IMG/VR virus record: IMGVR_UViG_2675903433_000022
Reading direction: 5' to 3' (one strand)
Length of the DNA: 64,000 bases
From: a virus
Lineage: Duplodnaviria > Heunggongvirae > Uroviricota > Caudoviricetes
Shown here: positions 9,411-55,735 of the stretch, piece by piece
How the letters are laid out: each line of letters begins with the position of its first letter
How positions within the stretch are numbered: the stretch's first letter is position 1
Notes under the pieces: model-generated
Databases searched by the model: none
Seen by the model: only the letters and a program-made list of their open reading frames with translations
What the model was told of the DNA's origin: nothing
Position numbers and translations under genes: made by a program

Positions 9411-9512
9411 ACCGCTGACAGCATACTTGATTTGCCGCTGGCAGCATACCAAAAACAGTTGGTAGCATACGGCGAACCGTTGACAGACTATCAATTACCG
9501 CTGGCAGCATAC
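9411..9512. repeat. iteron array, 5 copies (incC/origin-proximal set)
   Basis: Same ACCGCTGACAGCATAC family (two degenerate) immediately upstream of the RepA start. Confidence 0.8.
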
Positions 9513-9552
9513 ATGAACATGGCTTCAGGCCAGTCGTGGCGCGGCTTACAGC

Positions 9553-9625
9553 GATCGGGGATCTTATTTGATCTATACAAGGATCTATCTATGGATCTCT
9601 TTATTAGGATCTATCCTGTGGATAT
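9553..9625. other. candidate plasmid replication origin core: six GATC sites in heptamer-like repeats plus DnaA-box-like TGTGGATAT
   Basis: GATC at ~9553, 9560, 9570, 9582, 9594, 9608 followed by TGTGGATAT (8/9 match to TGTGGATAA) at ~9617; adjacent to the upstream iterons as in P1 oriR. Confidence 0.6.
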
Positions 9626-9711
9626 GTGAATAATTAAAACAGGCATTTACTACCTTCGGCGCACCTGGTGGGTTATCGTTGCCTCGGCTAACAATCACAG
9701 AAAAATGACAT

Positions 9712-39079: not shown

Positions 39080-40180
39080 TCACACTGCGCGGAATGCGAT
39101 TTCGCCAGGTATTACTTCACCTTGCCAATACATTTGGGCAGCAACGCGATCTGCGAGGTCACGATAAATAGCCGTAAATTCGCTATCTGGACGACTAATA
39201 ACGGTTGGTGTTCCGTTATCCAGATCTTCACGAAGAGAGATATGAAGTGGCATTTGGCCTAACAACTGCGTGTTGTATTTCTCGGCCAGTTTCTGTGCGC
39301 CACCGGTGCCAAAAATTGGCTCGTGATGACCGCAGTTACTGCAAATATGCATACTCATGTTCTCGACAATACCGAGCACCGGAACCTCGACTTTCTCGAA
39401 CATCACAATGCCTTTTTTCGCATCGATCAACGCGATGTCCTGCGGCGTAGTTACCACAACCGCACCAGTTACAGGAATGTTCTGCGCCAGCGTCAATTGA
39501 ATATCACCAGTGCCCGGCGGCATATCGAGAACGAGATAGTCCAGATCAGGCCATAGAGTTTCCTGCAACATCTGCATTAACGCCTTGCTCGCCATCGGAC
39601 CACGCCACACCATCGCATTGTCGTCAGTTACCAGATAACCAATTGAATTGGTTGCCAGTCCATGAGACATAATCGGTGCCATGTGAGTACCGTCCGGTGA
39701 GGTTGGACGTTGGTTTTCCGCGCCAAGCATGGTTGGAATTGATGGCCCGTAGATATCGGCATCCAAAATACCAACTTTCGCACCTTCAGCAGCCAACGCC
39801 AGTGCCAGGTTTACCGCCGTGGAGGATTTACCAACGCCGCCCTTGCCTGAGCTGACGGCGATAATGTTCTTAACGCCATTAATGCCTGGTTGGTTTTTGA
39901 CGCGCTTAAGCGTGGCAATGTTGTACGACAGCTTCCAGTCGATAGCCTTTGCGCCAGTGATACGGAGCAGATCACCACTACATTGCTCTTTCAGGTCTTC
40001 AAAAGGCTTATTCCACACGAAAGGCATGATTAGTTCGACATGCAGTGTGTCATCCATCAACGCAACATGGTGTAACGCTTTAAGCGTAGTCAGGTTGTGT
40101 TTCAGGGTTGGGTGCTGAAAATTAGCCAGCGTACCGGCTACCATTGCTCTCAGGGCATCCGGCGATTTGGACTCGCTCAT
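39080..40180 (-). CDS. apbC: Fe-S cluster carrier ATPase Mrp/ApbC
   Basis: 366 aa; deviant Walker A SGKGGVGKS; reads as near full-length enterobacterial Mrp by recall. Confidence 0.9.
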   Translation of the reverse strand: MSESKSPDALRAMVAGTLANFQHPTLKHNLTTLKALHHVALMDDTLHVELIMPFVWNKPFEDLKEQCSGDLLRITGAKAIDWKLSYNIATLKRVKNQPGINGVKNIIAVSSGKGGVGKSSTAVNLALALAAEGAKVGILDADIYGPSIPTMLGAENQRPTSPDGTHMAPIMSHGLATNSIGYLVTDDNAMVWRGPMASKALMQMLQETLWPDLDYLVLDMPPGTGDIQLTLAQNIPVTGAVVVTTPQDIALIDAKKGIVMFEKVEVPVLGIVENMSMHICSNCGHHEPIFGTGGAQKLAEKYNTQLLGQMPLHISLREDLDNGTPTVISRPDSEFTAIYRDLADRVAAQMYWQGEVIPGEIAFRAV

Positions 40181-40337
40181 CCCGTCTCCTTTATTTTAAT
40201 TTGCGCAATTGTCGCCTTGTAGTGTACTCCAGCTACGGCATTTAATCATTTATGAGAAATGCTGTTATCACATGGCAGACATAAGGCCATTTTGTTACTA
40301 TCAAGCCCCTTTTCACTACAAAGAAGTAATGCCTACT

Positions 40338-42371
40338 ATGACCCAAGTCGCGAAGAAAATTCTGGTGACGTGCGCGCTGCCGTACGCTAACGGCTCAATC
40401 CACCTCGGCCATATGCTGGAGCACATCCAGGCTGATGTCTGGGTTCGTTACCAGCGAATGCGCGGCCACGAGGTTAATTTCATCTGTGCCGACGATGCCC
40501 ACGGTACGCCGATCATGCTGAAAGCACAGCAGCTTGGTATCACACCGGAGCAGATGATTGGCGAAATGAGTCAGGAACACCAGACTGATTTCGCAGGCTT
40601 TAACATCAGCTATGACAACTATCACTCGACGCACAGCGAAGAGAACCGTCAGTTGTCTGAGCTTATCTATACTCGCCTGAAAGAGAACGGTTTTATTAAA
40701 AATCGTACCATCTCTCAGCTGTACGACCCGGAAAAAGGCATGTTCCTGCCGGACCGTTTTGTAAAAGGCACCTGCCCTAAATGTAAAGCGCCAGATCAAT
40801 ACGGCGATAACTGTGAAGTCTGCGGCGCGACTTACAGCCCGACTGAACTGATCGAGCCGAAATCGGTAGTTTCTGGTGCTACGCCGGTAATGCGTGATTC
40901 CGAACACTTCTTCTTTGATCTGCCTTCTTTCAGCGAAATGTTGCAGGCATGGACCCGCAGCGGTGCGTTGCAGGAGCAGGTGGCAAACAAAATGCAGGAG
41001 TGGTTTGAATCTGGCCTGCAACAGTGGGATATCTCCCGTGACGCACCTTACTTCGGTTTTGAAATTCCGAACGCGCCGGGCAAATATTTCTACGTCTGGC
41101 TGGACGCGCCGATTGGCTACATGGGTTCCTTCAAGAATCTGTGCGACAAGCGCGGTGATACCACCAGCTTCGATGAATACTGGAAGAAAGACTCCACCGC
41201 CGAGCTGTACCACTTCATCGGTAAAGATATTGTTTACTTCCACAGCCTGTTCTGGCCTGCCATGCTGGAAGGCAGCAACTTCCGCAAGCCGACCAACCTG
41301 TTTGTTCATGGCTATGTGACGGTGAACGGCGCAAAGATGTCCAAGTCTCGCGGCACCTTTATTAAAGCCAGCACCTGGCTGAATCATTTTGACGCTGACA
41401 GCCTGCGTTACTACTACACTGCGAAACTCTCTTCGCGCATTGATGATATCGATCTCAACCTGGAGGATTTCGTTCAGCGCGTGAATGCCGATATCGTGAA
41501 CAAAGTGGTTAACCTGGCCTCCCGTAATGCAGGCTTTATCAACAAGCGTTTTGACGGCGTGCTGGCAAGCGAACTGGCTGACCCGCAACTGTACAAAACC
41601 TTTACTGATGCCGCTGAAGTGATTGGTGAAGCATGGGAAAGCCGCGAATTTGGTAAAGCGATTCGTGAAATCATGGCGCTGGCTGATCTGGCTAACCGCT
41701 ATGTCGATGAACAGGCTCCGTGGGTGGTGGCGAAGCAGGAAGGACGCGATGCCGATCTGCAGGCGATTTGCTCTATGGGCATTAACCTGTTCCGCGTGCT
41801 GATGACGTACCTGAAACCGGTACTGCCGAAACTGACTGAACGTGCAGAAGCATTCCTGAATACAGAACTGACCTGGGATGGTATCCAGCAACCGCTGCTG
41901 GGCCATAAAGTGAATCCGTTCAAGGCACTGTATAACCGTATCGATATGAAACAGGTGGAAGCACTGGTGGAAGCATCCAAAGAAGAAGTGAAAGCCACAG
42001 CTGCACCGGTAACTGGCCCACTGGCTGACGACCCGATTCAGGAAACCATCACCTTTGACGACTTCGCCAAAGTTGACCTGCGTGTGGCGCTGATTGAAAA
42101 CGCGGAGTTTGTCGAAGGTTCTGACAAACTGCTTCGCCTGACGCTGGATCTCGGTGGTGAAAAGCGTAATGTCTTCTCAGGCATCCGTTCCGCTTATCCA
42201 GATCCACAGGCACTGATTGGTCGTCACACCATTATGGTGGCTAACCTGGCTCCGCGTAAAATGCGCTTCGGTATCTCTGAAGGCATGGTGATGGCTGCTG
42301 GCCCCGGCGGGAAAGATATCTTCCTGTTAAGCCCGGATGCTGGTGCTAAACCTGGCCACCAGGTTAAGTAA
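40338..42371 (+). CDS. metG: methionyl-tRNA synthetase
   Basis: Track ORF 40209..42371, true start ATG 40338 (MTQVAKKIL); HIGH-type motif [14 protein letters not shown], zinc knuckles CPKC/CEVC and C-terminal tRNA-binding domain. Confidence 0.95.
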
Positions 42372-43189: not shown

Positions 43190-43930
43190 ACAACTGAATA
43201 ACAGATCAACGAAACGTCAACGCTTTCTCCCGATTTGGTCTAAAAAATTGACGTTTTCACACATCACTTCTTATACCCGTAATTCTACGCAGCAGATAGC
43301 GCCACAGCGTTCAATTTTCACCACAGACGACTCAACACACTACCAACAAAAACACACGCTCAAAATCGCTCCCGTTGCGTTACACAACCATATAAACAAC
43401 TTATTTTCAGGTATAACAAAACAACTAAATAACACATACGCCATTACCAAAAACAACCAACCTCTTTATGGCAGGCTACCGAAAAGACCCACCTCTTCTT
43501 CCCAGGCTACCGGACAGCCAACCTAACTTTCACAGGCAATCCGAAAACATTCATACGCGCGATACCCACGACACGCCATTACCCAAACATCGAAGAAACA
43601 CCAGAATCACTGAAACCCCAACGAAGTCTGTAACCGCAAGGCTTCTCTCAATCCCAAAAGACACGAAACATAACAATCACGGGAAACGCCATTACCCAAT
43701 ACACGAATAACTACAAAAGCCCTTCACACACTCCAGACAAACAACTCAAACACAATAACGAAAGGAATAGCCCACCTGCCATTACTCCATATACGGAGAA
43801 GAACAATAACCATAACGACGAGAACACCCCATAGAAGAACCACCGCAAAACGAACGAAACCACATACACCGACAGAGAAAACAACACACCCAATCCACCA
43901 ACAGAAATAGTCGCCCTATAGAACGTTCTG
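43190..43930. repeat. strand-asymmetric A/C-rich, G-poor noncoding tract with internal repeated modules
   Basis: About 740 bp with almost no G runs on the plus strand; recurring ACGCCATTACC(C)AA and CAGGCTACCG..CCACCT units; track ORFs here are low-complexity artefacts. Confidence 0.5.
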
Positions 43931-44119
43931 GTAGGAGTGAGCATTAACGCCTATAGAGAGGTTGAGACAGATAAAACACGAAGAAAACACAACATGTATA
44001 GCGAAGAAGCCAGGTATGTATAAGTGGGGAGGGAAGGAGGGGTGTCGCCTCCTTTTTCGTATTTATTCAACTCCTGATTTTATCCCCCGTAACACCCCTA
44101 CGGTCAGCCTTCGGTCCAT

Positions 44120-44265
44120 ACAGGGAAAAGGTTGCATCCCGCTACAGAAACGGCTGGATTGCCTTCGGGGAACGGCTGGAGGTTTTCAGGGAAACGGTCG
44201 AGCTGCCTTTGTGGATTTCGGGAAAAGGCTCGATGCCGGTTCAGGAACGGTGGCGTACCGGTATA
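44120..44265. repeat. tandem ~22-bp repeats with GGGAAACGGC core (about 6 units)
   Basis: Units CAGGGAAAAGG.., CAGAAACGGCTGG.., GGGGAACGGCTGG.., GGGAAACGGTCG.., GGGAAAAGGCTCG.., GGAACGGTGG.. Confidence 0.6.
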
Positions 44266-44612
44266 GCGAGAGAGAGTTGCGGCTACCCACCTGTAATGTG
44301 CGGTAAGAAGAGAGGCGCTCACGTGCAGGCGAACTTACTTACCGCTGGATTCCCTCTGAATGCCCAGCTACAGCGTAATTGTGCCAGACAGTCAGCGGGT
44401 CACAATCGATTTCAGTAGGTTTTCGGGGAGGGGATTATTCTGCCCACCAGCCATCTTCGGCCATTAAATCAGAATAATGTAAAAAGTGTACTCGGTACTG
44501 AACCTGAAAACTCACTGCCAAAACCACATTCACCGGAATAAAATCCTTTTTAGCCTTTGCGTTATTGCGATAATAACACCATCAAGAAAACATGTTGTTT
44601 AAGGATTGCTTT

Positions 44613-44942
44613 ATGTTTGCAAATATCGACATCAACCAAATCAAGAAAATGACTCAAAAAGAGTTTGACCAGTTTTATGAGCTGGAAGGTTGGTCTTCCA
44701 CTCTGATTAATTCAAGATGGGTGCTGGAACTGATGACTCGTGATGACGCACCTGCTTTGATGATCAGCGACCTGGGTGAAGATGCTGACTTTATGGATAT
44801 GAGCGAATTTTGTGTGGACACATACAACCGCAGCCAGAAGTACTACTTCACATGCGATAGCGAAAATGACGTGATTTCTAAGGTCTATCTTCACCTCGTC
44901 CAGCATTGGGACGTTCAGGAGTTTCTTGAAGTATTCGAGTAA
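44613..44942 (+). CDS. hypothetical protein
   Basis: Track ORF 44592..44942; the first ATG lies inside the palindrome, so ATG 44613 is preferred. Confidence 0.5.
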   Translation: MFANIDINQIKKMTQKEFDQFYELEGWSSTLINSRWVLELMTRDDAPALMISDLGEDADFMDMSEFCVDTYNRSQKYYFTCDSENDVISKVYLHLVQHWDVQEFLEVFE

Positions 44943-45096
44943 ACCCAACCAAAGCCAGCAATGCTGGCTTAACTTCATCTGTAGCCGCAGGGAAGAACCT
45001 GCATATCGCTCATGCGCCTGATCAATATGCTTTGTAGCCGTTTTCTTACTGGTATTATTTACGCCATTGAGAAAACAAGTTGTTTACGGAGTTGTG

Positions 45097-45408
45097 ATGA
45101 AAAAATCATTGGTTCTTGGTCTGGACAAAGACCAGAAGAGAAAAGAGAAGCCTGCACTGGTTGCTCAATTAACTTTGCTGGACATCGTTGCCAATGGGAC
45201 CTCTATTCGTCTGTTCCGTGAAACAGCGGTGTCTTTCGATAAAAACACCTTTACTCGTTATGTAATGAATGTTCGTCGCCAGCGTGGAAAAGGCTGGGTG
45301 GCATTTCAAAGAATGTGGCCGGAACATCAGCTCGAACTGGCTTTGATGGAAGTAAACCGCGTGGCCCAGCAAGAGATTCAGAGAGCATCAGTGATGGCAA
45401 TAGCCTGA
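45097..45408 (+). CDS. hypothetical protein
   Basis: Track ORF 45067..45408, ATG 45097 after the palindrome. Confidence 0.5.
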   Translation: MKKSLVLGLDKDQKRKEKPALVAQLTLLDIVANGTSIRLFRETAVSFDKNTFTRYVMNVRRQRGKGWVAFQRMWPEHQLELALMEVNRVAQQEIQRASVMAIA

Positions 45409-45534
45409 TAATGTGCAAGTGGTAATTAGTCGACCGTACGACAGCCCCGCCATCCTTACGGGGCTTTTTTGTATTGTAAGTACATACTTACGATCATAGA
45501 ATATAAAAATAACCAAGACACTACGGAGAGTGAA

Positions 45535-45930
45535 ATGACCGTTAAACGCGAAAAACTGACAGTTGATGTTTACTATGCCTCTGAAACCGCCGAAGGTAAG
45601 AATGTGGCAAAAATCACCGTTGTTACGTACAACACCGAAACTGGTGCCGAAGTACAGGCCAGTACGATCGTGCGTAAAGGTGATGCCTCCGGCGGCGAGT
45701 ACGCGACTCAATACCAGTCCATTCTCGATGCAACTGACCCGCTGCTGCTGAAAATCGAGAACTACTTCCGCCAGGTTGATGAAGAGGTGTTTGAAACCAT
45801 GATGAATATGGTTAACACAGTATTCGCCTCCAGCCTGAATACCAACACTACCTGGATTGGTCAGTACGGCCTGCGCATTACCTCCGGCATTCCTGCTGAC
45901 ACCTTAATCCCTGAAAGCGTATTCGCTTAA
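45535..45930 (+). CDS. hypothetical protein
   Basis: Track ORF 45469..45930, ATG 45535 after GGAGAG. Confidence 0.5.
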   Translation: MTVKREKLTVDVYYASETAEGKNVAKITVVTYNTETGAEVQASTIVRKGDASGGEYATQYQSILDATDPLLLKIENYFRQVDEEVFETMMNMVNTVFASSLNTNTTWIGQYGLRITSGIPADTLIPESVFA

Positions 45931-45942
45931 TCTTCTTTGAAT

Positions 45943-45968
45943 GGCGCGTAAACCGCGCCATTTTTTAT
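45943..45968 (+). terminator. rho-independent terminator (GGCGCG-taaac-CGCGCC + T run)
   Basis: GC stem followed by ATTTTTTAT, then the TTGTTTTCTACC..GTGAAAAT cassette. Confidence 0.6.
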
Positions 45969-46046
45969 GCCCGATAACAATTTGTTTTCTACCTTATCTG
46001 ATTTGTGAAAATGATTTCACTGAAGCAACTTAATAAGGAAACCATC

Positions 46047-46421
46047 ATGGGACTTGATATCTATATCGAGACACAGCCTAAAAACGATCTGAATAACGAG
46101 GCATCCAGAAAGCAGGTTGCTTACTTCCGTAAGTTCAATGCGCTCGTTGGGTGGATGGAGCGCAACGTAGGTGAAGTCGAAAATTGTGAGCTTTTAGAAT
46201 TAACGATGAATGACATTTGTTTTCTGAAGGCTCATTTGATGCACATAAACGAAAGTAATTGCGAAGAGTACTTGCCTACCCGGGAAGGCTTTTTCTTCGG
46301 CAGTCAGGAGTACGATGAAGGTTACTGGCATGACGTGGACAAGCTGAAAAAACTTGTGGAAGACCTGATCAGGAACCACGACTTTCACAATAACAGACTG
46401 ACGTTCTGCGCCTGGTGGTAA
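46047..46421 (+). CDS. hypothetical protein
   Basis: Track ORF 46005..46421, ATG 46047 after AAGGAAA. Confidence 0.5.
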   Translation: MGLDIYIETQPKNDLNNEASRKQVAYFRKFNALVGWMERNVGEVENCELLELTMNDICFLKAHLMHINESNCEEYLPTREGFFFGSQEYDEGYWHDVDKLKKLVEDLIRNHDFHNNRLTFCAWW

Positions 46422-46771
46422 ATATGGGCGATTTCAAGAAACGCCTGAAGGAAAGAGCCGAGATGGTCAGAAAGCAAAACGCCTCTTCTGTCATCAGATA
46501 TGCAAGGCAGTTTAGTCGCAACAACAAATCAGTTGAGGAAAAGATCCTTAGCGTAATCGGGCGATAATTATTAAGGCCATCAGCATTGGTGGCCTTAAAT
46601 GACCATCCTGTTTCCCGCAGGCTAAAAACACCAACCTCTTACCTCCAGGCAACCGACAAACCCACCTGTTCCCGTCCGGCTACCGCAACTTTCCACTTTG
46701 ACGCCTTATTCGTACAACGATAATTAACACCAACAAGAAAACAATTTGTTATTTACGATAAGGAATTAATC

Positions 46772-47254
46772 ATGAATTTTATCGCTACTGTAAACGCACC
46801 CGCACATGGCAATATCGTTGTAACGTTCTCTGACATTGAAAAACGAGTACTTGGTGCCTGGCGTCACAATGAGACGGTAGAACTGTCAGAACAAGAAAAA
46901 TGCATTATTTCACGCGACATCATTGGCAATCGTCGTTACTCGCGGGTATTTGAGAAAGCGTATGTGGTAAATTCTGGATTCGGAACGTTCGTCTTTCCGG
47001 TGCGCTCCGGGCGATTCTGCCAGTCCAAGCTGATTGAGTTCGCTACGCAGATTTCTGTCTGGATTAAAACTCAATCGTCGTTCAAATTTTCCGACGATGA
47101 AGCAGTATCGCAGGGGATGCGGATCGCCAACAATGCGATTAAATGCAAAAACATTACGTATACCGCTGGCGTTGATACATGGAAACTGTTTTGCGCTAAC
47201 TTTATGCTGAATGTATACGCAAGCAACCGCATCCACATCCTTGATGGCGTGTAA
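46772..47254 (+). CDS. hypothetical protein
   Basis: Track ORF 160 aa after an AAACAAtTTGTT palindrome. Confidence 0.5.
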   Translation: MNFIATVNAPAHGNIVVTFSDIEKRVLGAWRHNETVELSEQEKCIISRDIIGNRRYSRVFEKAYVVNSGFGTFVFPVRSGRFCQSKLIEFATQISVWIKTQSSFKFSDDEAVSQGMRIANNAIKCKNITYTAGVDTWKLFCANFMLNVYASNRIHILDGV

Positions 47255-47289
47255 CTGAGAAGAGGGCCAGAAACGGCCCTTTCTCTATA

Positions 47290-47395
47290 GCCACCAGCTG
47301 CCGCAGGGAAATTTTCAGAAACGGCGAGGAACGCATTCATGAGCCGACGGGAAACGGCCAGGATTTTTTCGGGAAACGGCTGCATTCGCCTTTGT
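47290..47395. repeat. second tandem GGGAAACGGC-core repeat cluster (3-4 units)
   Basis: CAGAAACGGCGAGG.., GGGAAACGGCCAGG.., GGGAAACGGCTGCATTCGCCTTTGTG; same family as 44120-44265. Confidence 0.5.
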
Positions 47396-47870
47396 GTAGA
47401 AAAAAACATCGGGAAGCTGGTGGAATCCAACCAGCGGTTGTCGGACAGGTGAGCGGGGAAAATTATGATGACTTTCGTCGCCTGAGACATCCAGATTTCT
47501 TTCGTAGCGTAATCACATACGTGATTAAGTGGTGTGATTATGTGAAAAATCACGCGCACATAATACGCGAGCGGATACGGAACAAAACAAAATGCCGATC
47601 CGCGCCGACAATTAAACGCGGACACATAGCAAGAATAAAAGCCAATGATTAACCATACACCATAACGCAATATAACGCGATTTAAGCGCGTTAATGCGCT
47701 AAGTAATGGGTATGTACTGGTAAGGATATAAAAGCGCGTCTATGGCGTTATTTTGGCGCTTATTTTTATGTTGTTGGCTTGAGTCAAAGACAATAAAAAA
47801 AGCGCCATCATTGGCGCGTTATGGTGGAAGTATTGGAAACGAAAAAAGCGCCCATAGTGGGCGCTCGATT

Positions 47871-48372: not shown

Positions 48373-49023
48373 TTACGCTTTGAAAGCATCAGCTAAATAA
48401 TTGTAGAAATCATTTTTAATGAAGCGATATTGCTGAGTACCAGCTTTCGCACTCCCAGCTCCTTTGACTTTTTCAACAAGTCCAAGACGTTCGCAAAGAT
48501 TGATCAACTGGTTGGCTTGAGTATAGCCAGCGTCCAATTTAATTTCACACGCTTTTTTAGCTTCATTCATTAAATCGAAAACAGCGCCATTGGTGAACGT
48601 GTCGATCTCGTCGTTAATCATATCGATTAAAGCGAATACACGAGATCCAGACATATCAGCGATGGAATAAACGCATTTACCAGATTTAATTGATTTAACC
48701 AGATAAACCAGTTTTTCCAGAGAATAACTATTAGTCATTGCATCACGGAAAAATACTTCTGGCGCTTGTTTGCTTGCTTTAATCGCATAGTAGAAAACAG
48801 AGCATAATTTTTCGTCTTCAACAGCGTTTACAACGTTGTTGATGAAGTAAGCAAGTTTAGTGGTCGCAGCTTGCATATTTGCTTTGTCTGCTTTAGTGTG
48901 CGTACCATTTTTATAATGTTCGTTATATGTTTGAGTTGCCAGATCTGCTTTTTCGCGCAGTTCATCGGATACAATGGAAGCAGCTTCAATGATGGATTTT
49001 TTAGAAATGATAATGTTAGCCAT
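48373..49023 (-). CDS. hypothetical protein
   Basis: Track ORF 216 aa; AT-rich codon usage distinct from neighbours. Confidence 0.55.
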   Translation of the reverse strand: MANIIISKKSIIEAASIVSDELREKADLATQTYNEHYKNGTHTKADKANMQAATTKLAYFINNVVNAVEDEKLCSVFYYAIKASKQAPEVFFRDAMTNSYSLEKLVYLVKSIKSGKCVYSIADMSGSRVFALIDMINDEIDTFTNGAVFDLMNEAKKACEIKLDAGYTQANQLINLCERLGLVEKVKGAGSAKAGTQQYRFIKNDFYNYLADAFKA

Positions 49024-49618: not shown

Positions 49619-50143
49619 TCAAAAAGGCAAAATTCGCTCAACCCAATCGAACAAAACAACTATTTTTCTACCGTTCTCGACACGTAGTGTAACCTGACAA
49701 GCATCTGCGCCTGCTGACACTCCCTCAATTTCACGGCCATCCGCCATGTACACCCTTATAGATTTGTTTGCTTTGTAGGCTTGGTTGCAAATTGCAAAAA
49801 AATCGCGGCGTGATGGCCGATTATCGACATAATCAGGGTGAACTGTTAGTCGACCTTTGAAATCGTGAGCGATACTGTCAACCACACCTGATTCAATTGT
49901 ACTAATGCGTTCAAGTGGGAGCCTTATACGATTTTCTTTATCAAAAGGGGCTGGGCAAAGGTCAACTTTGTTACGAGATGGCATGAGGCCATAAACGTAC
50001 ATGCAAAACGCCTGGCCATCTTCGAGAGTGACCCTTACAGGAATTTGTTCTCTGCGCCAGAACATCAGTAGTTTTTCAACGTTAGTGTAATCTCGCGGCC
50101 AGAGTTCAGCTTGGATACCGTAGGTAATATCTTTGGTTGTCAT
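49619..50143 (-). CDS. hypothetical protein
   Basis: Track ORF 49619..50221; start moved to the ATG at 50143 (MTTKDITYG), 4 bp after the upstream stop. Confidence 0.45.
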   Translation of the reverse strand: MTTKDITYGIQAELWPRDYTNVEKLLMFWRREQIPVRVTLEDGQAFCMYVYGLMPSRNKVDLCPAPFDKENRIRLPLERISTIESGVVDSIAHDFKGRLTVHPDYVDNRPSRRDFFAICNQAYKANKSIRVYMADGREIEGVSAGADACQVTLRVENGRKIVVLFDWVERILPF

Positions 50144-50147
50144 GTCA

Positions 50148-50612
50148 TCACAGAGTTGTTGGCAGAATGTCGATGTCACCAGAATTGCTGGTGAACACCC
50201 TGAACGCTTTTGTGTCTCCATTCTTCAGAGTCGTTTCTCGCTCTTGACGAGCGGGGTTTAGAGCACATAAACCTGCACCTTCAAGAGATGCACCCACAAT
50301 TAATTCTCCGGCATTTAAATGGAAAGTCGCTTTTTCGCCTGTAGCCAGTTTTGCGACAGTTTCGCCGTTGATGAAAATGGAAGCATCACATCCAGCTCCT
50401 ACAAAACCTGTGTCTCTCATTACCACCAACGTAGCTGGCGCTGCGCTTTGATACTTGAACACTTTGGCCTGCGGTGCTGGTTTGGCGTCATGGATTGATA
50501 TTGGGCGTGATTGGCACGCGGTAAGCATCAACACTGGTAACGTTAGTAGAGGGAGAAGCGAGTATTTCATGATAGTTTTAGAACAGAAAGTGAACAGTAT
50601 GGGAGACTTCAT
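50148..50612 (-). CDS. putative lipoprotein
   Basis: Lipobox LTAC after a hydrophobic segment; AGGGAG RBS before the ATG at 50612 (alternative start at 50570). Confidence 0.55.
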   Translation of the reverse strand: MKSPILFTFCSKTIMKYSLLPLLTLPVLMLTACQSRPISIHDAKPAPQAKVFKYQSAAPATLVVMRDTGFVGAGCDASIFINGETVAKLATGEKATFHLNAGELIVGASLEGAGLCALNPARQERETTLKNGDTKAFRVFTSNSGDIDILPTTL

Positions 50613-52543: not shown

Positions 52544-53242
52544 GTGGATTGTAGCAATAAAATGGATGTAAAAATCACGATTTTGCAGGTTGATGTTGCC
52601 AACCTTCGCCCGAATACCTGGAACACCAATTCGGTTGGTGCGCAGAATTTTGAAAAACTGAAAGGTTCTATCGAAAAATTGGGCTTTTTTAAGCCAATTT
52701 TGGCTCGTGAACTTGAAGATGGATTTTTTGAAATCCTCGGCGGCGAACATCGCTGGCGTGCTGCTATTGAGCAAGGAATTTCAACGGTTCCGGTGCTTTC
52801 TGTGGGCAAAATTAGCGATGTCGTAGCTAAACAGATGTCACTGGTGGACAACGAGCGATACGGTGAAGACGACCAAATCGCATTGCAACGCTTCATTGAA
52901 GAAATTCAGTCAGAACTTGACTATCAACTGTCTGAAATCGCCCCGTATGACGACGAAATCTCGATGGTTTTAGCAAAAGAGGCGGCAATCGACCTTGAAG
53001 CACTGGAGGCGTTGTCTCGTGGTAGTGATGAGCCTGTCGATACCGACAAACGAGAGAAAACCGAACGTGTGGGGGCGGAACATCAGACCATGCGCTTCAA
53101 AGTAACTTTCGATGCGTCAGATCGTGTTGCAGAAACCATAAAAAACATCATCAAAGAGCAGGCTATTAACACCGGTAATGAAATGGAGAACGCTGGTGAG
53201 GCTCTGGTGTGGCTGGTCGACTACTACAAGGAGCGTATGTAA
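52544..53242 (+). CDS. ParB-like nuclease domain protein 1 (start may be ATG 52562)
   Basis: ParB N-terminal domain signature ILGGEHRWRAA. Confidence 0.7.
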   Translation: MDCSNKMDVKITILQVDVANLRPNTWNTNSVGAQNFEKLKGSIEKLGFFKPILARELEDGFFEILGGEHRWRAAIEQGISTVPVLSVGKISDVVAKQMSLVDNERYGEDDQIALQRFIEEIQSELDYQLSEIAPYDDEISMVLAKEAAIDLEALEALSRGSDEPVDTDKREKTERVGAEHQTMRFKVTFDASDRVAETIKNIIKEQAINTGNEMENAGEALVWLVDYYKERM

Positions 53243-53910
53243 TGACCAAAAAGTTTGAAATCGTATATCGCGACCCGGCAGATCTTATTCCCTATGAGAT
53301 GAATGCCAAAAAGCATGATGAACAGCAGATCCGAGATCTGGCCGCAGCCATTAAAAAGCGCGGATTTGACCAGCCAATTACGGTCGATAAGAACGACGTA
53401 ATTATTACTGGCCACGGCCGCCGTGAGGCTGCAATTTTTGCTGGACTTGAGCGCGTGCCGGTTATTGTTCGCGATGATCTCAGTGATGACGAGGTTCGTG
53501 CGAAGCGCCTTGAAGATAACCGACTTGCCAGCATTGATTACGATGCAATTAAGCTACAGAAAGAGCTTGAGTCGCTTGTTCTGGACGATATCGAGGTTTT
53601 CGGCTTTGAAGAGCGTGAGTTGAATGTTCTCGTTGGCAGTATGACAGAAGAAATGGACACCGACTCGCTAGTTATCGATCTTGGCGAAGAAACTAAACGA
53701 CAGAAGGATGAACACACCGAGATCAGTCGCGAAGTTGCAGCGGAAGAAGTACGTGTTGTCGACGTATTGGGCTTTAAAACGCTTCCTGCTGGCTCTGCCA
53801 TTGTTGTTGGTGATTTGCTTGCCCACATGGAAGAAATGACGGGAGAGAGCGGGGTAGACGCATTTGTGGCATATGCGGAGAAGATCTCTTCCGGGGAGAT
53901 GGCTGCATGA
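53242..53910 (+). CDS. ParB-like nuclease domain protein 2
   Basis: Track ORF 53209..53910, ATG 53242; signature ITGHGRREAA. Confidence 0.7.
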   Translation: MTKKFEIVYRDPADLIPYEMNAKKHDEQQIRDLAAAIKKRGFDQPITVDKNDVIITGHGRREAAIFAGLERVPVIVRDDLSDDEVRAKRLEDNRLASIDYDAIKLQKELESLVLDDIEVFGFEERELNVLVGSMTEEMDTDSLVIDLGEETKRQKDEHTEISREVAAEEVRVVDVLGFKTLPAGSAIVVGDLLAHMEEMTGESGVDAFVAYAEKISSGEMAA

Positions 53911-54572
53911 GCAAATACATCATCAACGTATCGTTTCAGACTCGCGTAAATAAAACCACGCGCACATTGGAAATCGCTGAGTCGTTCGGGCTTGGCCTGG
54001 ACGAAAAAGAGTGGACGCTTTACGACAATCTGGAGCTGGAAGTGAAGCAGGGCGATGTGGTGTACATCACCGGCCAATCCGGTTCCGGCAAATCCGTTGT
54101 GCTGCGCGAGTTGCAACGACAGATGAAGGATGAAGGGCTGTCTGTAGCCTCCATCGATGATTTTACCTTCGATAATGAGGTTAACGTCATCGATCAGTTG
54201 GGCAAAACGACCAGTGATGCGCTTGGGTTGTTATCTATGGCTGGTCTGAACGATGCATATCTGTTTGTTCGCAAGCCTTCTGAAATGTCAGACGGCCAGA
54301 AATATCGTCTCAAGATTGCCAAACTGATTGAGTCAGGCGCTAAAGTGTGGGCTGCTGACGAGTTCGGCGCTGTTCTCGACCGTGTAACCGCTCAGGTTGT
54401 GGCGTCTAACCTCCAGCGTGCCGCTCGAAAGGTTGGTGCGACGGTAATGGTGGCGACGACTCACGAAGACCTGAAGAACGCGCTGCGCCCGGATATGCAG
54501 ATCACCAAGCACTACAAAGAACGCGTGAAGGTGGAATATCACAATGGTAGTCATGATGAGGTCCATTCATGA
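53907..54572 (+). CDS. ABC-type ATPase domain protein (no transmembrane domain)
   Basis: Walker A GQSGSGKS, signature-like SDGQKYR, Walker B VWAADEFG, H-loop TTHE. Confidence 0.65.
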   Translation: MSKYIINVSFQTRVNKTTRTLEIAESFGLGLDEKEWTLYDNLELEVKQGDVVYITGQSGSGKSVVLRELQRQMKDEGLSVASIDDFTFDNEVNVIDQLGKTTSDALGLLSMAGLNDAYLFVRKPSEMSDGQKYRLKIAKLIESGAKVWAADEFGAVLDRVTAQVVASNLQRAARKVGATVMVATTHEDLKNALRPDMQITKHYKERVKVEYHNGSHDEVHS

Positions 54573-55459
54573 CGGACATCATCATTAAACGCTACCGCCC
54601 TGAAGAGTTTCCGCGTCATCTGGACTTTCTGGAGCGAATGACTGTTACAAAGGGAACTGTAGAGGACTGGCACGCTCTTAAGTCGCTTCACTACAAAACA
54701 GACGGCAAACCTTTCGCGCCAACTTACTATCGCTGCGAACTTGATGACCGTCTGGTGGGCGTCGTGGTTATGGCTTACCCGAAACTACTGTTGGCACCTC
54801 GCCACCGCATGTTTCCTAAGTTGAAACCAACCACTAATACCACCGTGGCTAACCAGTACTGGGGTCGGTACGTGAATAACAACTTTGCGGTGATCAGTCG
54901 CTCAGTTGTGGATACTCAGTATCGTGGCGTAGGCGTCTCTTATCGAATGATTAACCTGGTTAGCAGGATGCATGACCGGCCAATCATTGAGATCCAGTCC
55001 TCGATGAGCAAATACAATCCCTTCGCCATGAAAGCAGGGTTTAAGTTCATCCGCCCTGAGCGACCGAAGAGCTATGAAAGTGCACTGCGTGTATTCCAGC
55101 GCCATTTCCGTTCCGACCCGGGTGATAACGAGGCGATCGTCAAAGAGTTGTTCGCAATGAGCGAGTCTCGTCGTCGCCGTGCACTGCGTGATCTGGTGGC
55201 GGACTACCACAAGAACAGTTCCCTGGCAAAAGCTGGGCGGAATCGTGGCACTACGATTCAGGACATTGCCGACAGTCTGGTGGACGAGGCCAGCATTGTG
55301 AAGCTGCTCAAGGACATTCACAACCTGAGCTTTACGTCTCCGTTGTATGGTGTGTACCGAAACCCTGACTTTGGCCGTCGACTGCCTGACACGCTGCCAC
55401 TGCTGGCATTCGACAAACAACCTTTGGATAAACCGTTAGAAATTGCTTTACCGGCATAA
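54569..55459 (+). CDS. GNAT-like acyltransferase domain protein with C-terminal extension (tentative)
   Basis: Motif A-like VVDTQYRGVGVSYRMINLV and motif B-like NPFAMKAGFKFI. Confidence 0.45.
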   Translation: MTDIIIKRYRPEEFPRHLDFLERMTVTKGTVEDWHALKSLHYKTDGKPFAPTYYRCELDDRLVGVVVMAYPKLLLAPRHRMFPKLKPTTNTTVANQYWGRYVNNNFAVISRSVVDTQYRGVGVSYRMINLVSRMHDRPIIEIQSSMSKYNPFAMKAGFKFIRPERPKSYESALRVFQRHFRSDPGDNEAIVKELFAMSESRRRRALRDLVADYHKNSSLAKAGRNRGTTIQDIADSLVDEASIVKLLKDIHNLSFTSPLYGVYRNPDFGRRLPDTLPLLAFDKQPLDKPLEIALPA

Positions 55460-55468
55460 GGATTTGCC

Positions 55469-55735
55469 ATGACGTTAACCGACAAACAAAAGGACATCAT
55501 CAAAACGCTCAATCTCGGTTATGAGCGAGGTCATCTACTTGATCTGGACGAATTGCTTGAAGTTTTGCCGTACAAGACAACCAAGCAAAGTATCCAGTTC
55601 TCAATTCGCGCTCTGATAAAAAAGGGGCTGGTGGAGAAAGGGCATACGCGCCAACGCAGTGACAATCGCTATCACCGCCGGACTCTTGGGTTAACCACTT
55701 TAGGTCGAGCCAAAGCGAAGTTACTGGTGATGTAA
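55469..55735 (+). CDS. small winged-helix DNA-binding protein (tentative)
   Basis: 88 aa; helix-turn-helix-like segment and basic C-terminus. Confidence 0.4.
   Translation: MTLTDKQKDIIKTLNLGYERGHLLDLDELLEVLPYKTTKQSIQFSIRALIKKGLVEKGHTRQRSDNRYHRRTLGLTTLGRAKAKLLVM

Follow-up and report, generated by a model that had tools for sequence, protein, structure and literature searches.

Two arrays of short direct repeats in an E. coli SSU5-like phage-plasmid resemble docking sites for a lytic-cycle DNA-binding protein, and they possibly have a role in an origin of replication. Our preferred interpretation, which we advance tentatively and with limited confidence, is that both arrays are binding sites for a lytic-cycle protein, array 2 being the origin-type site to which array 1 is auxiliary. 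The window, meaning the whole 64,000-nucleotide stretch that was analyzed, has ~97.6% identity to phage Cyrano/pLF82 (genome size 108 kb for Cyrano). The family to which it belongs includes pHCM2 of S. Typhi, pMT1 of Y. pestis, pLF82/Cyrano and ~110-kb IncFIB elements of Klebsiella and Enterobacter.

The plasmid replicon of this element consists of RepA and ACCGCTGRCAGCATAC iterons at 9411–9516, beside repA and GATC-rich repeats. Those IncFIB/P1-type iterons are similar to the arrays in being short direct repeats within non-coding DNA of the same phage-plasmid, but their sequence differs (ACCGCTGRCAGCATAC versus GGGAAACGG) and they are 35–38 kb away, on which grounds RepA iterons were rejected as the identity of the arrays. 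The arrays are not the plasmid origin. Since the plasmid replicon is distant from and unrelated to them, the element's own replication proteins (helicase, primase, Pol III alpha and epsilon, a gp32-like SSB, ligase, RNase H, UvsW and UvsY) are left without an assigned origin. The literature searched does not mention the repeats, and it states neither where phage-mode replication starts nor the role of the long conserved non-coding stretches in these elements.

A first-pass annotation of this DNA had reported tandem ~22-bp repeats in two clusters, which was borne out: both clusters are built on a GGGAAACGG-type word and are the same type of element (Table 1). As an exact 10-mer, however, the core GGGAAACGGC is confined to two units, which both belong to array 2. 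The remaining units are variants of GGGAAACGGC with one to three mismatches, the invariant part being RAA(A/C)(C/A/G)GG. The six same-strand units of array 1 are spaced 22/22/22/31/22 bp apart, and array 2 has a spacing of 33/22 bp and a total of four to five units over 47268–47380. Tandem Repeats Finder, the check suggested at the time, returned a period of 22 but only 2.3 copies (44147–44197). A 16-nt weight matrix built only from four other lineages gave nine matches of ≥12 bits in the window, all on the + strand; array 1 accounts for five of these and array 2 for two. In comparison, 200 dinucleotide-preserving shuffles never produced more than one match per 150-bp span, versus the five in array 1. 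Across the whole 108-kb Cyrano genome, matches of ≥13 bits were confined to the two arrays and three isolated positions, and nowhere else in that genome does the motif form an array.

Table 1. Positions of the two repeat arrays, their flanking features and the genes for candidate binding proteins in the window.
Feature	Position	Strand	Detail
A/C-rich (G/T-poor) DNA	43250–43950	+	non-coding, ~700 bp, upstream of array 1
Conserved block upstream of array 1	44015–44115	+	terminator scan, alignment, per-column conservation
TATAAGTGGG in that block	44019–44028		block also holds CGTATTTATTCAA, ATCCCCCGTAAC, CGGTCAGCCTTCGG
Terminator-like hairpin with T-run	44031–44058	+	upstream of array 1; terminator scan
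Array 1	44120–44255	+	six direct units
Array 1, core 1 (10 nt)	44123–44132	+	GGGAAAAGGT
Array 1, core 2 (10 nt)	44145–44154	+	CAGAAACGGC
Array 1, core 3 (10 nt)	44167–44176	+	GGGGAACGGC
Array 1, core 4 (10 nt)	44189–44198	+	GGGAAACGGT
Array 1, core 5 (10 nt)	44220–44229	+	GGGAAAAGGC
Array 1, core 6 (10 nt)	44242–44251	+	CAGGAACGGT
GGTATAG box after array 1	44260–44266	+	8 nt past last core
Chi site	44444–44451	-	GCTGGTGG on - strand; ~200 bp past array 1
TGCGATAAT	44566–44574	+	candidate extended -10-type promoter of operon 44613–47254; by eye, multi-lineage alignment
Terminator hairpin of upstream operon	47262–47286	+	loop holds core CAGAAACGGC (47268–47277)
Chi site, inward-facing	47291–47298	-	immediately left of array 2; part of an inverted repeat
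Array 2	47305–47380	+	half unit and three units
Array 2, half unit	47306–47312	+	GGGAAAT
Array 2, core	47316–47325	+	CAGAAACGGC
Array 2, core	47349–47358	+	GGGAAACGGC
Array 2, core	47371–47380	+	GGGAAACGGC
Box after array 2	47392–47402	+	TGTGTAGAAAA
Palindrome-dense AT-richer segment	47400–47870		non-coding, ~470 bp, between array 2 and convergent - strand genes
Chi site, inward-facing	47416–47423	+	immediately right of array 2
Tandem terminators	47802–47817, 47846–47866	-	terminator scan
p216	48373–49023	-	helical N-domain (bundle) and single C-terminal winged helix-turn-helix
Two ParB_N-domain proteins	52544–53910	+	232 and 233 aa; alternative candidate binders

The earlier view of a short-period, protein-binding type of array rather than a CRISPR array is supported. 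A CRISPR array has repeats of 23–50 bp, unique spacers of similar length and usually cas genes; here one full period, "spacer" and all, measures 22 bp, with a core of 7–10 bp, the spacers are preserved from one lineage to another and the annotation has no cas genes. A repeat within coding sequence over array 1 (ORF 43962–44306; CYRAN_104 in Cyrano) was also rejected, as the ORFs are not retained. Relatives annotate nothing there, and unit indels would shift the reading frame. Searches of the sequence found no tRNA genes and no relevant Rfam family match.

Comparison of relatives revealed strong conservation of the repeats, in register at both arrays, in related elements, whose loss there had been named as grounds for abandoning the first-pass reading. 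Array 1 is conserved in register in 14 lineage representatives, with a core identity of 0.76 versus 0.55 for the spacer (p = 1.8e-5), and lineages differ by unit-sized indels of 22 and 44 bp. A core of the GGGAAAC type and the arrangement in two arrays are kept in E. coli, Salmonella pHCM2, Klebsiella and Enterobacter, and Y. pestis pMT1 has array 2 only. The arrays are also kept in IMG/VR relatives and in Logan contigs whose p216 homologue is only ~33% identical; the motif core is invariant even there, so that a search for changes in the motif that track the recognition helix of p216 is uninformative. In the most distant relatives (L119–L121) the 22-bp phasing is lost: the spacing in L120 is 7–11 bp, and L121 has two palindromic sites, 61 bp apart, with the 14-bp palindrome GGGAAAGTTTTCCC. 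Matches to two spaced cores in non-SSU5 IMG/VR records were mostly chance or unrelated repeats. A TATAG-like hexamer follows the last core by ~11–13 nt at both arrays in nearly every lineage, including very distant ones; in array 1, 11 nt separate the GGAACGG of the last core from TATAG, and after array 2 the box is TATGTAGAAA in most lineages and TATAGG or CACTATAGGG in distant ones. Of the non-coding features found near the genes for phage-mode replication proteins, the two arrays and their flanks are the best conserved.

The flanks of the two arrays have distinct features. Upstream of array 1, the hairpin is retained with differing stem sequences among lineages, as determined by RNAalifold, and the A/C-rich DNA has its own CGCCATTACCCAA repeats, a GC skew to -0.54 and an AT skew to +0.64. 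This composition is retained in relatives including L119 and L120, and the A/C-rich DNA is part of the conserved module. The GC profile across lineages shows no AT-rich neighbor at array 1, the segment after it has no RNA structure signal, and the Chi site beyond it was found in nine of the 15 lineages checked. At array 2, the stem of the preceding terminator hairpin covaries between lineages (pairs 19–47 to 30–37, with compensatory changes), and the last two units and their TTTTC leaders are invariant in 13 lineages. The segment at 47400–47870 has fold z-scores of -7.0 (+ strand) and -6.7 (- strand), and past array 2 the lineages yield a sparse consensus fold (covariation term -1.38 kcal/mol; 10 of 54 pairs compensated). 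GC content falls 150–450 bp past array 2 in every lineage and most strongly in the GC-rich L120, where it is 0.24–0.42 in the AT-richer segment versus 0.66–0.78 in the array. Both arrays sit behind + strand terminators, and array 2 is also shielded by the tandem - strand terminators. Array 2 is bracketed by inward-facing Chi sites in seven of the 16 lineages, and 13 of the 16 have one or both; in that orientation the Chi sites may spare the site from RecBCD. A chromosome-origin-like switch in Chi polarity at array 2 was suggestive by eye, but was dropped as the genome-wide orientation switch was not significant (19/25, permutation p = 0.28).

In the interpretation we prefer, both arrays would be bound as double-stranded tandem sites by one sequence-specific protein of the phage-plasmid, and would mark a cis-acting site for the lytic (phage) mode rather than for plasmid maintenance. 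Array 2 would be the core of a second, phage-mode replication origin, whose parts would be the iteron-like repeats, the TATAG-type box, the palindrome-dense AT-richer 470 bp and the terminators on both sides, with array 1, 3.2 kb off, as an auxiliary cluster for the same protein. The best candidate for that protein would be the winged-helix p216. Binding of protein to the arrays, the identity of the binder and the firing of replication at the site are inferences; what was observed is the arrays and their statistics, their deep conservation, the insulating terminators, the Chi sites beside them, the fold of p216 and its silence in lysogens. Iteron-type origins have at least three direct repeats of 17–22 bp in helical phase, and the arrays have six and four to five copies on one strand with a period of 22 bp, which is two helical turns. 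Iteron origins with a second, distant cluster include those of the satellite phage P4 (ori/crr) and SPP1 (oriL/oriR, G38P), as well as P1 (incC/incA) and R6K. The arrays are comparable to these in having ~22-bp direct repeats, two clusters of the same motif a few kb apart and an AT-richer segment beside one cluster, in a phage with its own helicase and primase.

Other observations fit less well with an origin. Unlike the P4, SPP1, P1 and R6K origins, the arrays have no recognizable adjacent initiator, whether of the Rep_3/RepA, P4 alpha, lambda O or G38P type. A cognate initiator would be a Rep with two winged helices or a protein of the O or alpha type, but p216 has one winged helix and a helical bundle, and the 10 ORFs neighboring the arrays had no Pfam or NCBIfam replication-family match. 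DnaA boxes and IHF sites, which also distinguish those origins, and 13-mer-like unwinding elements were not found conserved here. In addition, genes converge on array 2, whereas bidirectional origins are more often located between divergent genes; array 1 lacks an AT-rich neighbor, and the most distant relatives have lost the 22-bp phasing. Intergenic DNA of any kind is often AT-rich and often has terminators, and a TATAG-like box whose distance hardly varies is explained by a promoter no less readily than by an origin.

The protein p216 is a candidate array-binding protein based on its fold and location. Its gene is the nearest conserved gene, being next to array 2, and is on the same strand as, and downstream of, the gene for the UvsW-like helicase. 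Homologues of p216 were found only in the SSU5/pHCM2/pMT1 phage-plasmid family. It had no Pfam, NCBIfam or PDB sequence match, an IMG/VR search for distant homologues found none, and a BFVD search gave no significant match. In Cyrano lysogens grown in LB, p216 (CYRAN_113) had 5.9 normalized reads against a floor of 4.99, and in the same dataset the terminase had 7–8 and RepA 133 (PMC9928086 S1 Table). As p216 is at background in lysogens, it behaves as a lytic-cycle gene.

A possible, though doubtful, alternative is that the arrays control transcription, as tandem activator or repressor sites (for p216 or another protein) at the -35 position of two promoters with a -10-like TATAG or TATGTA. 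Array 1 would then drive or gate the conserved small-gene operon at 44613–47254 between the arrays, and array 2 would drive a non-coding transcript across 47400–47870. The position of the hexamer past the last core at both arrays in nearly every lineage points to such a role, as do the terminator preceding each array, which is a common terminator-then-promoter layout, the conservation of the operon and the winged helix of p216, a domain of many regulators. Tandem sites of winged-helix activators, such as the pho boxes of PhoB and OmpR sites, are 22-bp direct repeats; like them, the arrays have direct repeats phased at 11 or 22 bp that end ~10–11 nt before a -10-like hexamer. However, the hexamer is a poor sigma-70 -10, as the boxes (TATAGA, TATAGC, TACAGA and TATGTA) do not have the required T at -7, and a promoter scan found nothing at either array. 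The locus also differs from PhoB and OmpR systems in having no response-regulator gene. In addition, the operon is already preceded by the well conserved candidate extended -10 TGCGATAAT, ~300 bp from array 1, and array 2, toward which two operons converge with their 3' ends, has no downstream gene that it could control. Neither the segment after array 1, which is devoid of RNA structure, nor the sparse, low-covariation fold after array 2 favors regulated transcripts from these sites.

The first-pass annotation had offered a centromere-like array as the counterpart to a lytic-origin-like one, and of the two the latter fits somewhat better. We consider it unlikely that the arrays are centromere-like or ParB-loading sites, bound by the ParB_N proteins, maybe with the ABC-type ATPases, or by a TubR-like p216 for the purpose of segregating or organizing the DNA of the element. 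Repeat-array centromeres include parC of R1, parC1/parC2 of pB171, tubC of pBtoxis and c-st, which is bound by the winged-helix TubR, and the dispersed sites of N15. The arrays share with these their phased direct repeats, a nearby winged-helix protein, residence in a phage-plasmid and two clusters flanking an operon, as parC1/parC2 do in pB171. There is also a resemblance to ParB and Noc sites, which are parS, TGTTTCAC-GTGAAACA, and NBS, TATTTCCC-GGGAAATA (PMC7383237): the core GGGAAAC is one base from each half-site (GTGAAAC and GGGAAAT, respectively), and the ParB_N proteins are encoded 5 kb off. The sites are direct half-sites in the enterobacterial lineages rather than 16-bp palindromes, and a palindrome, of 14 bp, is present only in L121. 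ParB-like 1 retains the GGEHRWRAA nucleotide-binding motif, and every relative has the ParB-like genes in synteny with the arrays.

Several findings weaken the centromere interpretation. The statement that no partition ATPase is adjacent was correct: there is no ParA, ParM or TubZ gene within 4 kb, and the ParA locus of Cyrano is separate, at 29.3 kb, which is ~65 kb from the arrays, with no GGGAAAC-type motif near it. A "MinD" ATPase was ruled out as a partition partner, as the 366-aa P-loop protein encoded at 39080–40180 is of the Mrp/NUBPL iron-sulfur carrier type and is lineage-specific, being missing from relatives. Both ParB-like proteins match ParB/Noc only via the N-terminal domain, with PDB matches ending at about residue 110–120 and profile matches by position 122; the exception is one weak stretch to residue 160 with Spo0J from a single-sequence query. 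PDB and profile searches detected no ParB-type HTH in either protein, so the half-site resemblance has no matching reader domain. An AF2 model of a ParB-like protein made from close homologues only had a pLDDT of 37, too low for use, and by inspection the C-terminus of ParB-like 1 may be read as a ribbon-helix-helix. The ParB-like genes are within the terminase operon, with two ABC-type ATPases. In addition, ParB-like 1 (CYRAN_119) was at the floor of 4.99 normalized reads in the Cyrano lysogen (PMC9928086 S1 Table). Like p216, it is therefore silent while the element exists as a plasmid, which is when a partition protein has to function; the argument holds only if p216 or ParB-like 1 is the binder.

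A related and rather improbable idea is that the arrays are loading sites for the CTP-switch-type pair of ParB_N proteins that lack the canonical ParB HTH, acting in the lytic cycle as a ParB-derived system. The genes for the pair and for the two ABC-type ATPases immediately precede those for the terminase, and the roles of the pair would be DNA organization, coupling of replication to packaging, or protection. The GGGAAAC half-sites, intermediate between parS and NBS, would in that case function as direct repeats guarded by the inward-facing Chi sites.

Two further alternatives are very unlikely. The first is an element acting at the RNA level, with motifs in a + strand transcript for an RNA-binding protein, such as an FljA-like one, or a structured non-coding RNA. 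All units are on one strand, one core is in the loop of a covarying hairpin, and by eye short CCG...CGG pairings can place some other cores in loops; a homologue of FljA, a protein that binds fliC mRNA, is encoded in a syntenic position at 49619–50221 (PF03614, E = 2.5e-84, with a weak Sm/Hfq-like match). However, the folding of array 1 is not stronger than that of shuffled sequences (z = +1.17), that of array 2 falls short of significance (z = -1.48), neither RNAalifold nor Rfam gave conserved helices or a family match in the arrays, both arrays are just downstream of terminators, the CYRAN_104 stretch overlapping array 1 was near background in lysogen RNA-seq (14 normalized reads versus a floor of 5), and L120 keeps the arrays though its locus genes have no Flag1_repress (FljA) domain on record. 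The second, equally remote from what we expect, is a packaging recognition (pac) site bound by the small terminase to begin headful packaging. The pac sites of P1 and SPP1 likewise comprise two clusters of short phased repeats, relatives have an SPP1-type portal and a Terminase_6N large subunit, and Chi sites are nearby. Against it, pac sites are usually in or adjoining terS whereas 8.5–12 kb separate the arrays from the genes for the terminase, the array is present twice, at an interval of 3.2 kb, and the inward-facing Chi sites are in the wrong orientation for protecting an end made inside an array.

SSU5-like phage-plasmids are very common in clinical Enterobacterales, and more than 700 PLSDB plasmids carry these regions. 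The plasmid replicon of these elements is typed; the arrays are newly described here, and their coordinates are accompanied by a 16-nt weight matrix and by named candidates for the binding protein. If array 2 is a lytic origin, it would provide a handle for curing these elements or for studies of their copy number. If instead the arrays load the ParB_N proteins, they would represent a new kind of ParB-derived lytic-cycle system.

The two clusters of direct repeats proposed in the first-pass annotation were confirmed by the coordinates of their units, by weight-matrix matches and by shuffles. The units of array 1 are spaced by 22, 22, 22, 31 and 22 bp. A common core had also been claimed, and this holds insofar as every unit carries a close variant of it, although the exact 10-mer GGGAAACGGC is present just twice. 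Tandem Repeats Finder reported the repeat at only 2.3 copies, so that the initial reading by eye of the sequence had detected more than the tool. A 16-nt weight matrix, built exclusively from Klebsiella, pHCM2, one IMG/VR relative and one K. quasipneumoniae relative, had nine matches in the window, all on the + strand, with five in array 1 and two in array 2, and 200 dinucleotide-preserving shuffles never gave more than one match per 150-bp span. Across the complete genome of Escherichia phage Cyrano the motif is arrayed at these two loci only. An isolated strong copy, GCGTGGAAAAGGCTGG (45282-45297; 16 bits), lies within a small ORF (45067-45408) and has no TATAG box after it.

Coordinates of the repeat arrays and associated features in the window
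Feature	Position	Strand	Details
repA ORF and repeat region (plasmid replicon)	8296-9351; 9354-9620	-	
T-rich repeats of plasmid replicon	9354-9381		
ACCGCTGRCAGCATAC iterons of repA	9411-9516		three copies
GATC-containing repeats of plasmid replicon	9566-9615		
Terminator-type hairpin and T-run	44031-44058		in conserved 100-bp block between A/C-rich stretch and array 1
Array 1	44120-44255	+	six units, all same strand; cores at 44123, 44145, 44167, 44189, 44220, 44242
GGTATAG box	44260		after array 1
Chi downstream of array 1	44444	-	
Conserved extended -10 TGCGATAAT	44566-44574		~300 bp downstream of array 1, directly before small-gene operon
Extra core near array 2	47268		in loop of preceding terminator hairpin
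Array 2	47305-47380	+	cores at 47316, 47349, 47371; half unit at 47306
TGTAGAAA/TATAG-type box			right after array 2
Chi octamers bracketing array 2	47291; 47416	-; +	inward-facing
ParB-like operon	52544-55735	+	two ParB_N-domain proteins, ABC-type ATPase, 296-aa protein, 88-aa protein
All Chi sites	7620, 15380, 16179, 21138, 22852, 38793, 41161, 44444, 47291, 47416, 51146, 55627, 58494		

The window is, judged from its similarity to known elements, an SSU5-like phage-plasmid, because the 4.5 kb surrounding the arrays have 97.6% identity to Cyrano (OV696614 = plasmid pLF82) and match 729 plasmids in PLSDB (from Escherichia, Klebsiella, Enterobacter, Salmonella, Yersinia and others), almost all of them IncFIB-typed and non-mobilisable. 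The Cyrano annotation places the plasmid initiator RepA and a ParA gene away from the arrays, as it does the replication proteins (helicase, primase, Pol III alpha and epsilon, gp32-like SSB, ligase, RNase H, UvsW and UvsY). The arrays are not the RepA iterons of the plasmid, since the repeats adjoining repA read ACCGCTGRCAGCATAC. The spacer from repA to the ASCH gene is ~360 bp in the window versus ~740 bp in Cyrano. Two cargo genes lie upstream of the array module (39080-42371). One encodes an Mrp/NUBPL-type iron-sulfur carrier ATPase ('MinD' in the Cyrano annotation) and the other a methionyl-tRNA synthetase of full length; as each is missing from several relatives, they are lineage-specific additions. 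A coding repeat was rejected, as the ORFs crossing array 1 lack conservation, and the short period and conserved 'spacers' bear out the earlier view that this is not a CRISPR array.

Both array regions are non-coding in nearly every annotated relative and still alignable across genera at 67-78% identity. All six array 1 units stay in register in elements of E. coli, Salmonella, Enterobacter and Klebsiella, and array 2 is also found in Y. pestis pMT1, where IS1541 occupies the place of the upstream part. Among 14 lineage representatives, cores matched the window in 76% of lineages versus 55% for spacers (Mann-Whitney p=1.8e-5). Some lineages have clean one- or two-unit deletions, and across 13 lineages the final two array 2 units do not vary, TTTTC leaders included. 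Matches in an IMG/VR pattern scan came mostly from the SSU5-like family, including three distant members (L032, L078 and L111), each with both arrays. Following remote homologues of p216, a predicted winged-helix protein, into Logan assemblies revealed three very distant relatives with the same gene order: L119, L120 (GC-rich) and L121 (AT-rich). At the array 2 position each of them carries GGGAAAC-type repeats, with varying copy number and spacing; such repeats were also seen at the array 1 position in L119 and L120, and in L121 the core word takes a palindromic form, GGGAAAGTTTTCCC. The possibility, raised in the first-pass annotation, that related elements might lack the repeats was thus answered by their deep conservation from E. 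coli to L119-L121.

Upstream of array 1, ~700 bp of non-coding sequence (43250-43950, +) are extremely A/C-rich and G/T-poor (GC skew to -0.54, AT skew to +0.64) and carry four CGCCATTACC(C)AA repeats. All relatives share this composition, L119 and L120 included, and CYRAN_103, the Cyrano gene annotated across the stretch, is silent in lysogens. The stretch could be a Rho-loading insulator or, on the other strand, encode an R-loop-prone G-rich transcript. The downstream operon, comprising six or seven small uncharacterised genes, terminates in a covarying hairpin with a core unit as its loop.

The Chi octamers flanking array 2 are alone common to the lineages while their flanks differ, a pattern suggesting that Chi itself, rather than a stem, is under selection. 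Chi (GCTGGTGG) is ~nine-fold over-represented in the window (13 versus 1.5 expected; 0/100 shuffles reach 13). Close inverted Chi pairs are frequent in relatives (e.g., ~54 bp apart within the small-gene operon), and most Chi in Cyrano 47-99 kb are on the non-coding strand. The 470 bp beyond the array 2 box (47400-47870) are palindrome-dense (fold z about -7 on both strands), AT-richer in every lineage, and end with tandem - strand terminators. This intergenic stretch holds many independent hairpins and palindromes, several of them at the same position with different sequence between lineages, and at least four tandem terminator-like hairpins. A TATAG-like hexamer lies 5-13 nt past the last core of both arrays in nearly all lineages. 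In L120 (Logan SRR22361136, reverse-complement 9620-9640) the box after array 2 is CTCACTATAGGG, which matches the T7 RNA polymerase promoter exactly from -9 to +3; the 20-kb locus of L120 showed no gene for a single-subunit RNA polymerase, and the likeness is probably coincidence.

The conserved gene nearest the arrays is that of the candidate binder p216 (48373-49023, -), downstream of a UvsW-like helicase gene on the same strand. No other protein of the neighbourhood is conserved as well as p216 (86% identity in Yersinia, 61% in distant relatives), whose family has only 23 representatives in 1.8 billion clustered proteins. The two ParB-like proteins named in the first-pass annotation, also candidate binders, do have ParB N-domains, and ParB-like 1 retains the GGEHRWRAA motif, but their similarity to structures of ParB, Spo0J and Noc does not extend past the N-domain, and an HTH was not detected. 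ParB-like 1 has a conserved C-terminal QTMRFKV...AGEALVWL domain, ribbon-helix-helix-like by eye. Their operon, which immediately precedes the terminase genes, is retained from pMT1 through to the most distant relatives, and its 88-aa protein has a faint LexA-type winged-helix match. In Cyrano lysogen RNA-seq, normalised reads for p216 (5.9) and ParB-like 1 (4.99) were at the floor, as for terminase and capsid genes, with RepA at 133 (PMC9928086 S1 Table). Both genes, given these floor-level reads, behave as lytic-cycle genes. Conservation of a FljA homologue (49619-50221, -; PF03614, E=2.5e-84; weak Hfq/Sm-like match) extends to pMT1, pHCM2 and distant relatives, and the Cyrano lysogen expresses it (18 normalised reads). 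FljA is the Salmonella repressor of phase-1 flagellin, and its homologue may let the phage-plasmid turn off host flagellin.

The arrays are likely to be a site on double-stranded DNA to which a sequence-specific protein binds cooperatively, because they are short phased direct repeats, their cores are selected while unit number is flexible, the motif arrays are confined to two loci, and they are insulated from transcription. As to role, we tentatively favour array 2 as a putative phage-mode replication origin, for which array 1 would serve as an auxiliary cluster, at somewhat below even chances. No origin is assigned to the replication proteins of the element itself, the iteron-like, AT-richer and palindrome-rich layout fits one, P4, SPP1, P1 and R6K have a similar two-cluster design, and the candidate binders are lytic genes, with p216 downstream of a UvsW-type helicase gene. 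Against an origin, an initiator could not be recognised, DnaA and IHF sites were not found, genes converge on array 2, repeat phasing is lost in distant relatives, and an apparent genome-wide two-domain Chi polarity, switching at array 2, was not significant (p=0.28).

The main rival reading, in which an activator or repressor would bind the arrays at two promoters with the TATAG box as a -10-like element, draws on the near-fixed spacing from last core to box. It is nevertheless rather doubtful, as the box matches a sigma-70 -10 poorly, a separate conserved promoter already precedes the small-gene operon, and no gene follows array 2. A centromere or ParB-loading role is improbable given a ParA locus elsewhere, the lack of a detected HTH and candidate binders that are silent in the plasmid state; the core GGGAAAC differs by one base from the parS and NBS half-sites (PMC7383237), a likeness to be treated as a lead, the matching reader domain not being found in the ParB-like proteins. 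Less likely still, and each very improbable, are a pac site and an RNA-level role. No tRNA genes or relevant Rfam matches were found, folding gave no excess stability over shuffled sequence in the arrays (z=+1.17 and -1.48), and consensus folding placed no helices within either.

The arrays are of a known kind, the protein-binding tandem array of iteron or centromere type, and are an undescribed instance of it with an uncharacterised candidate binder; the literature searched made no mention of these repeats. On the sequence comparisons made here, their conservation runs deep within a phage-plasmid family that is widespread in the clinic, and the coordinates and motif given make their putative function directly testable.
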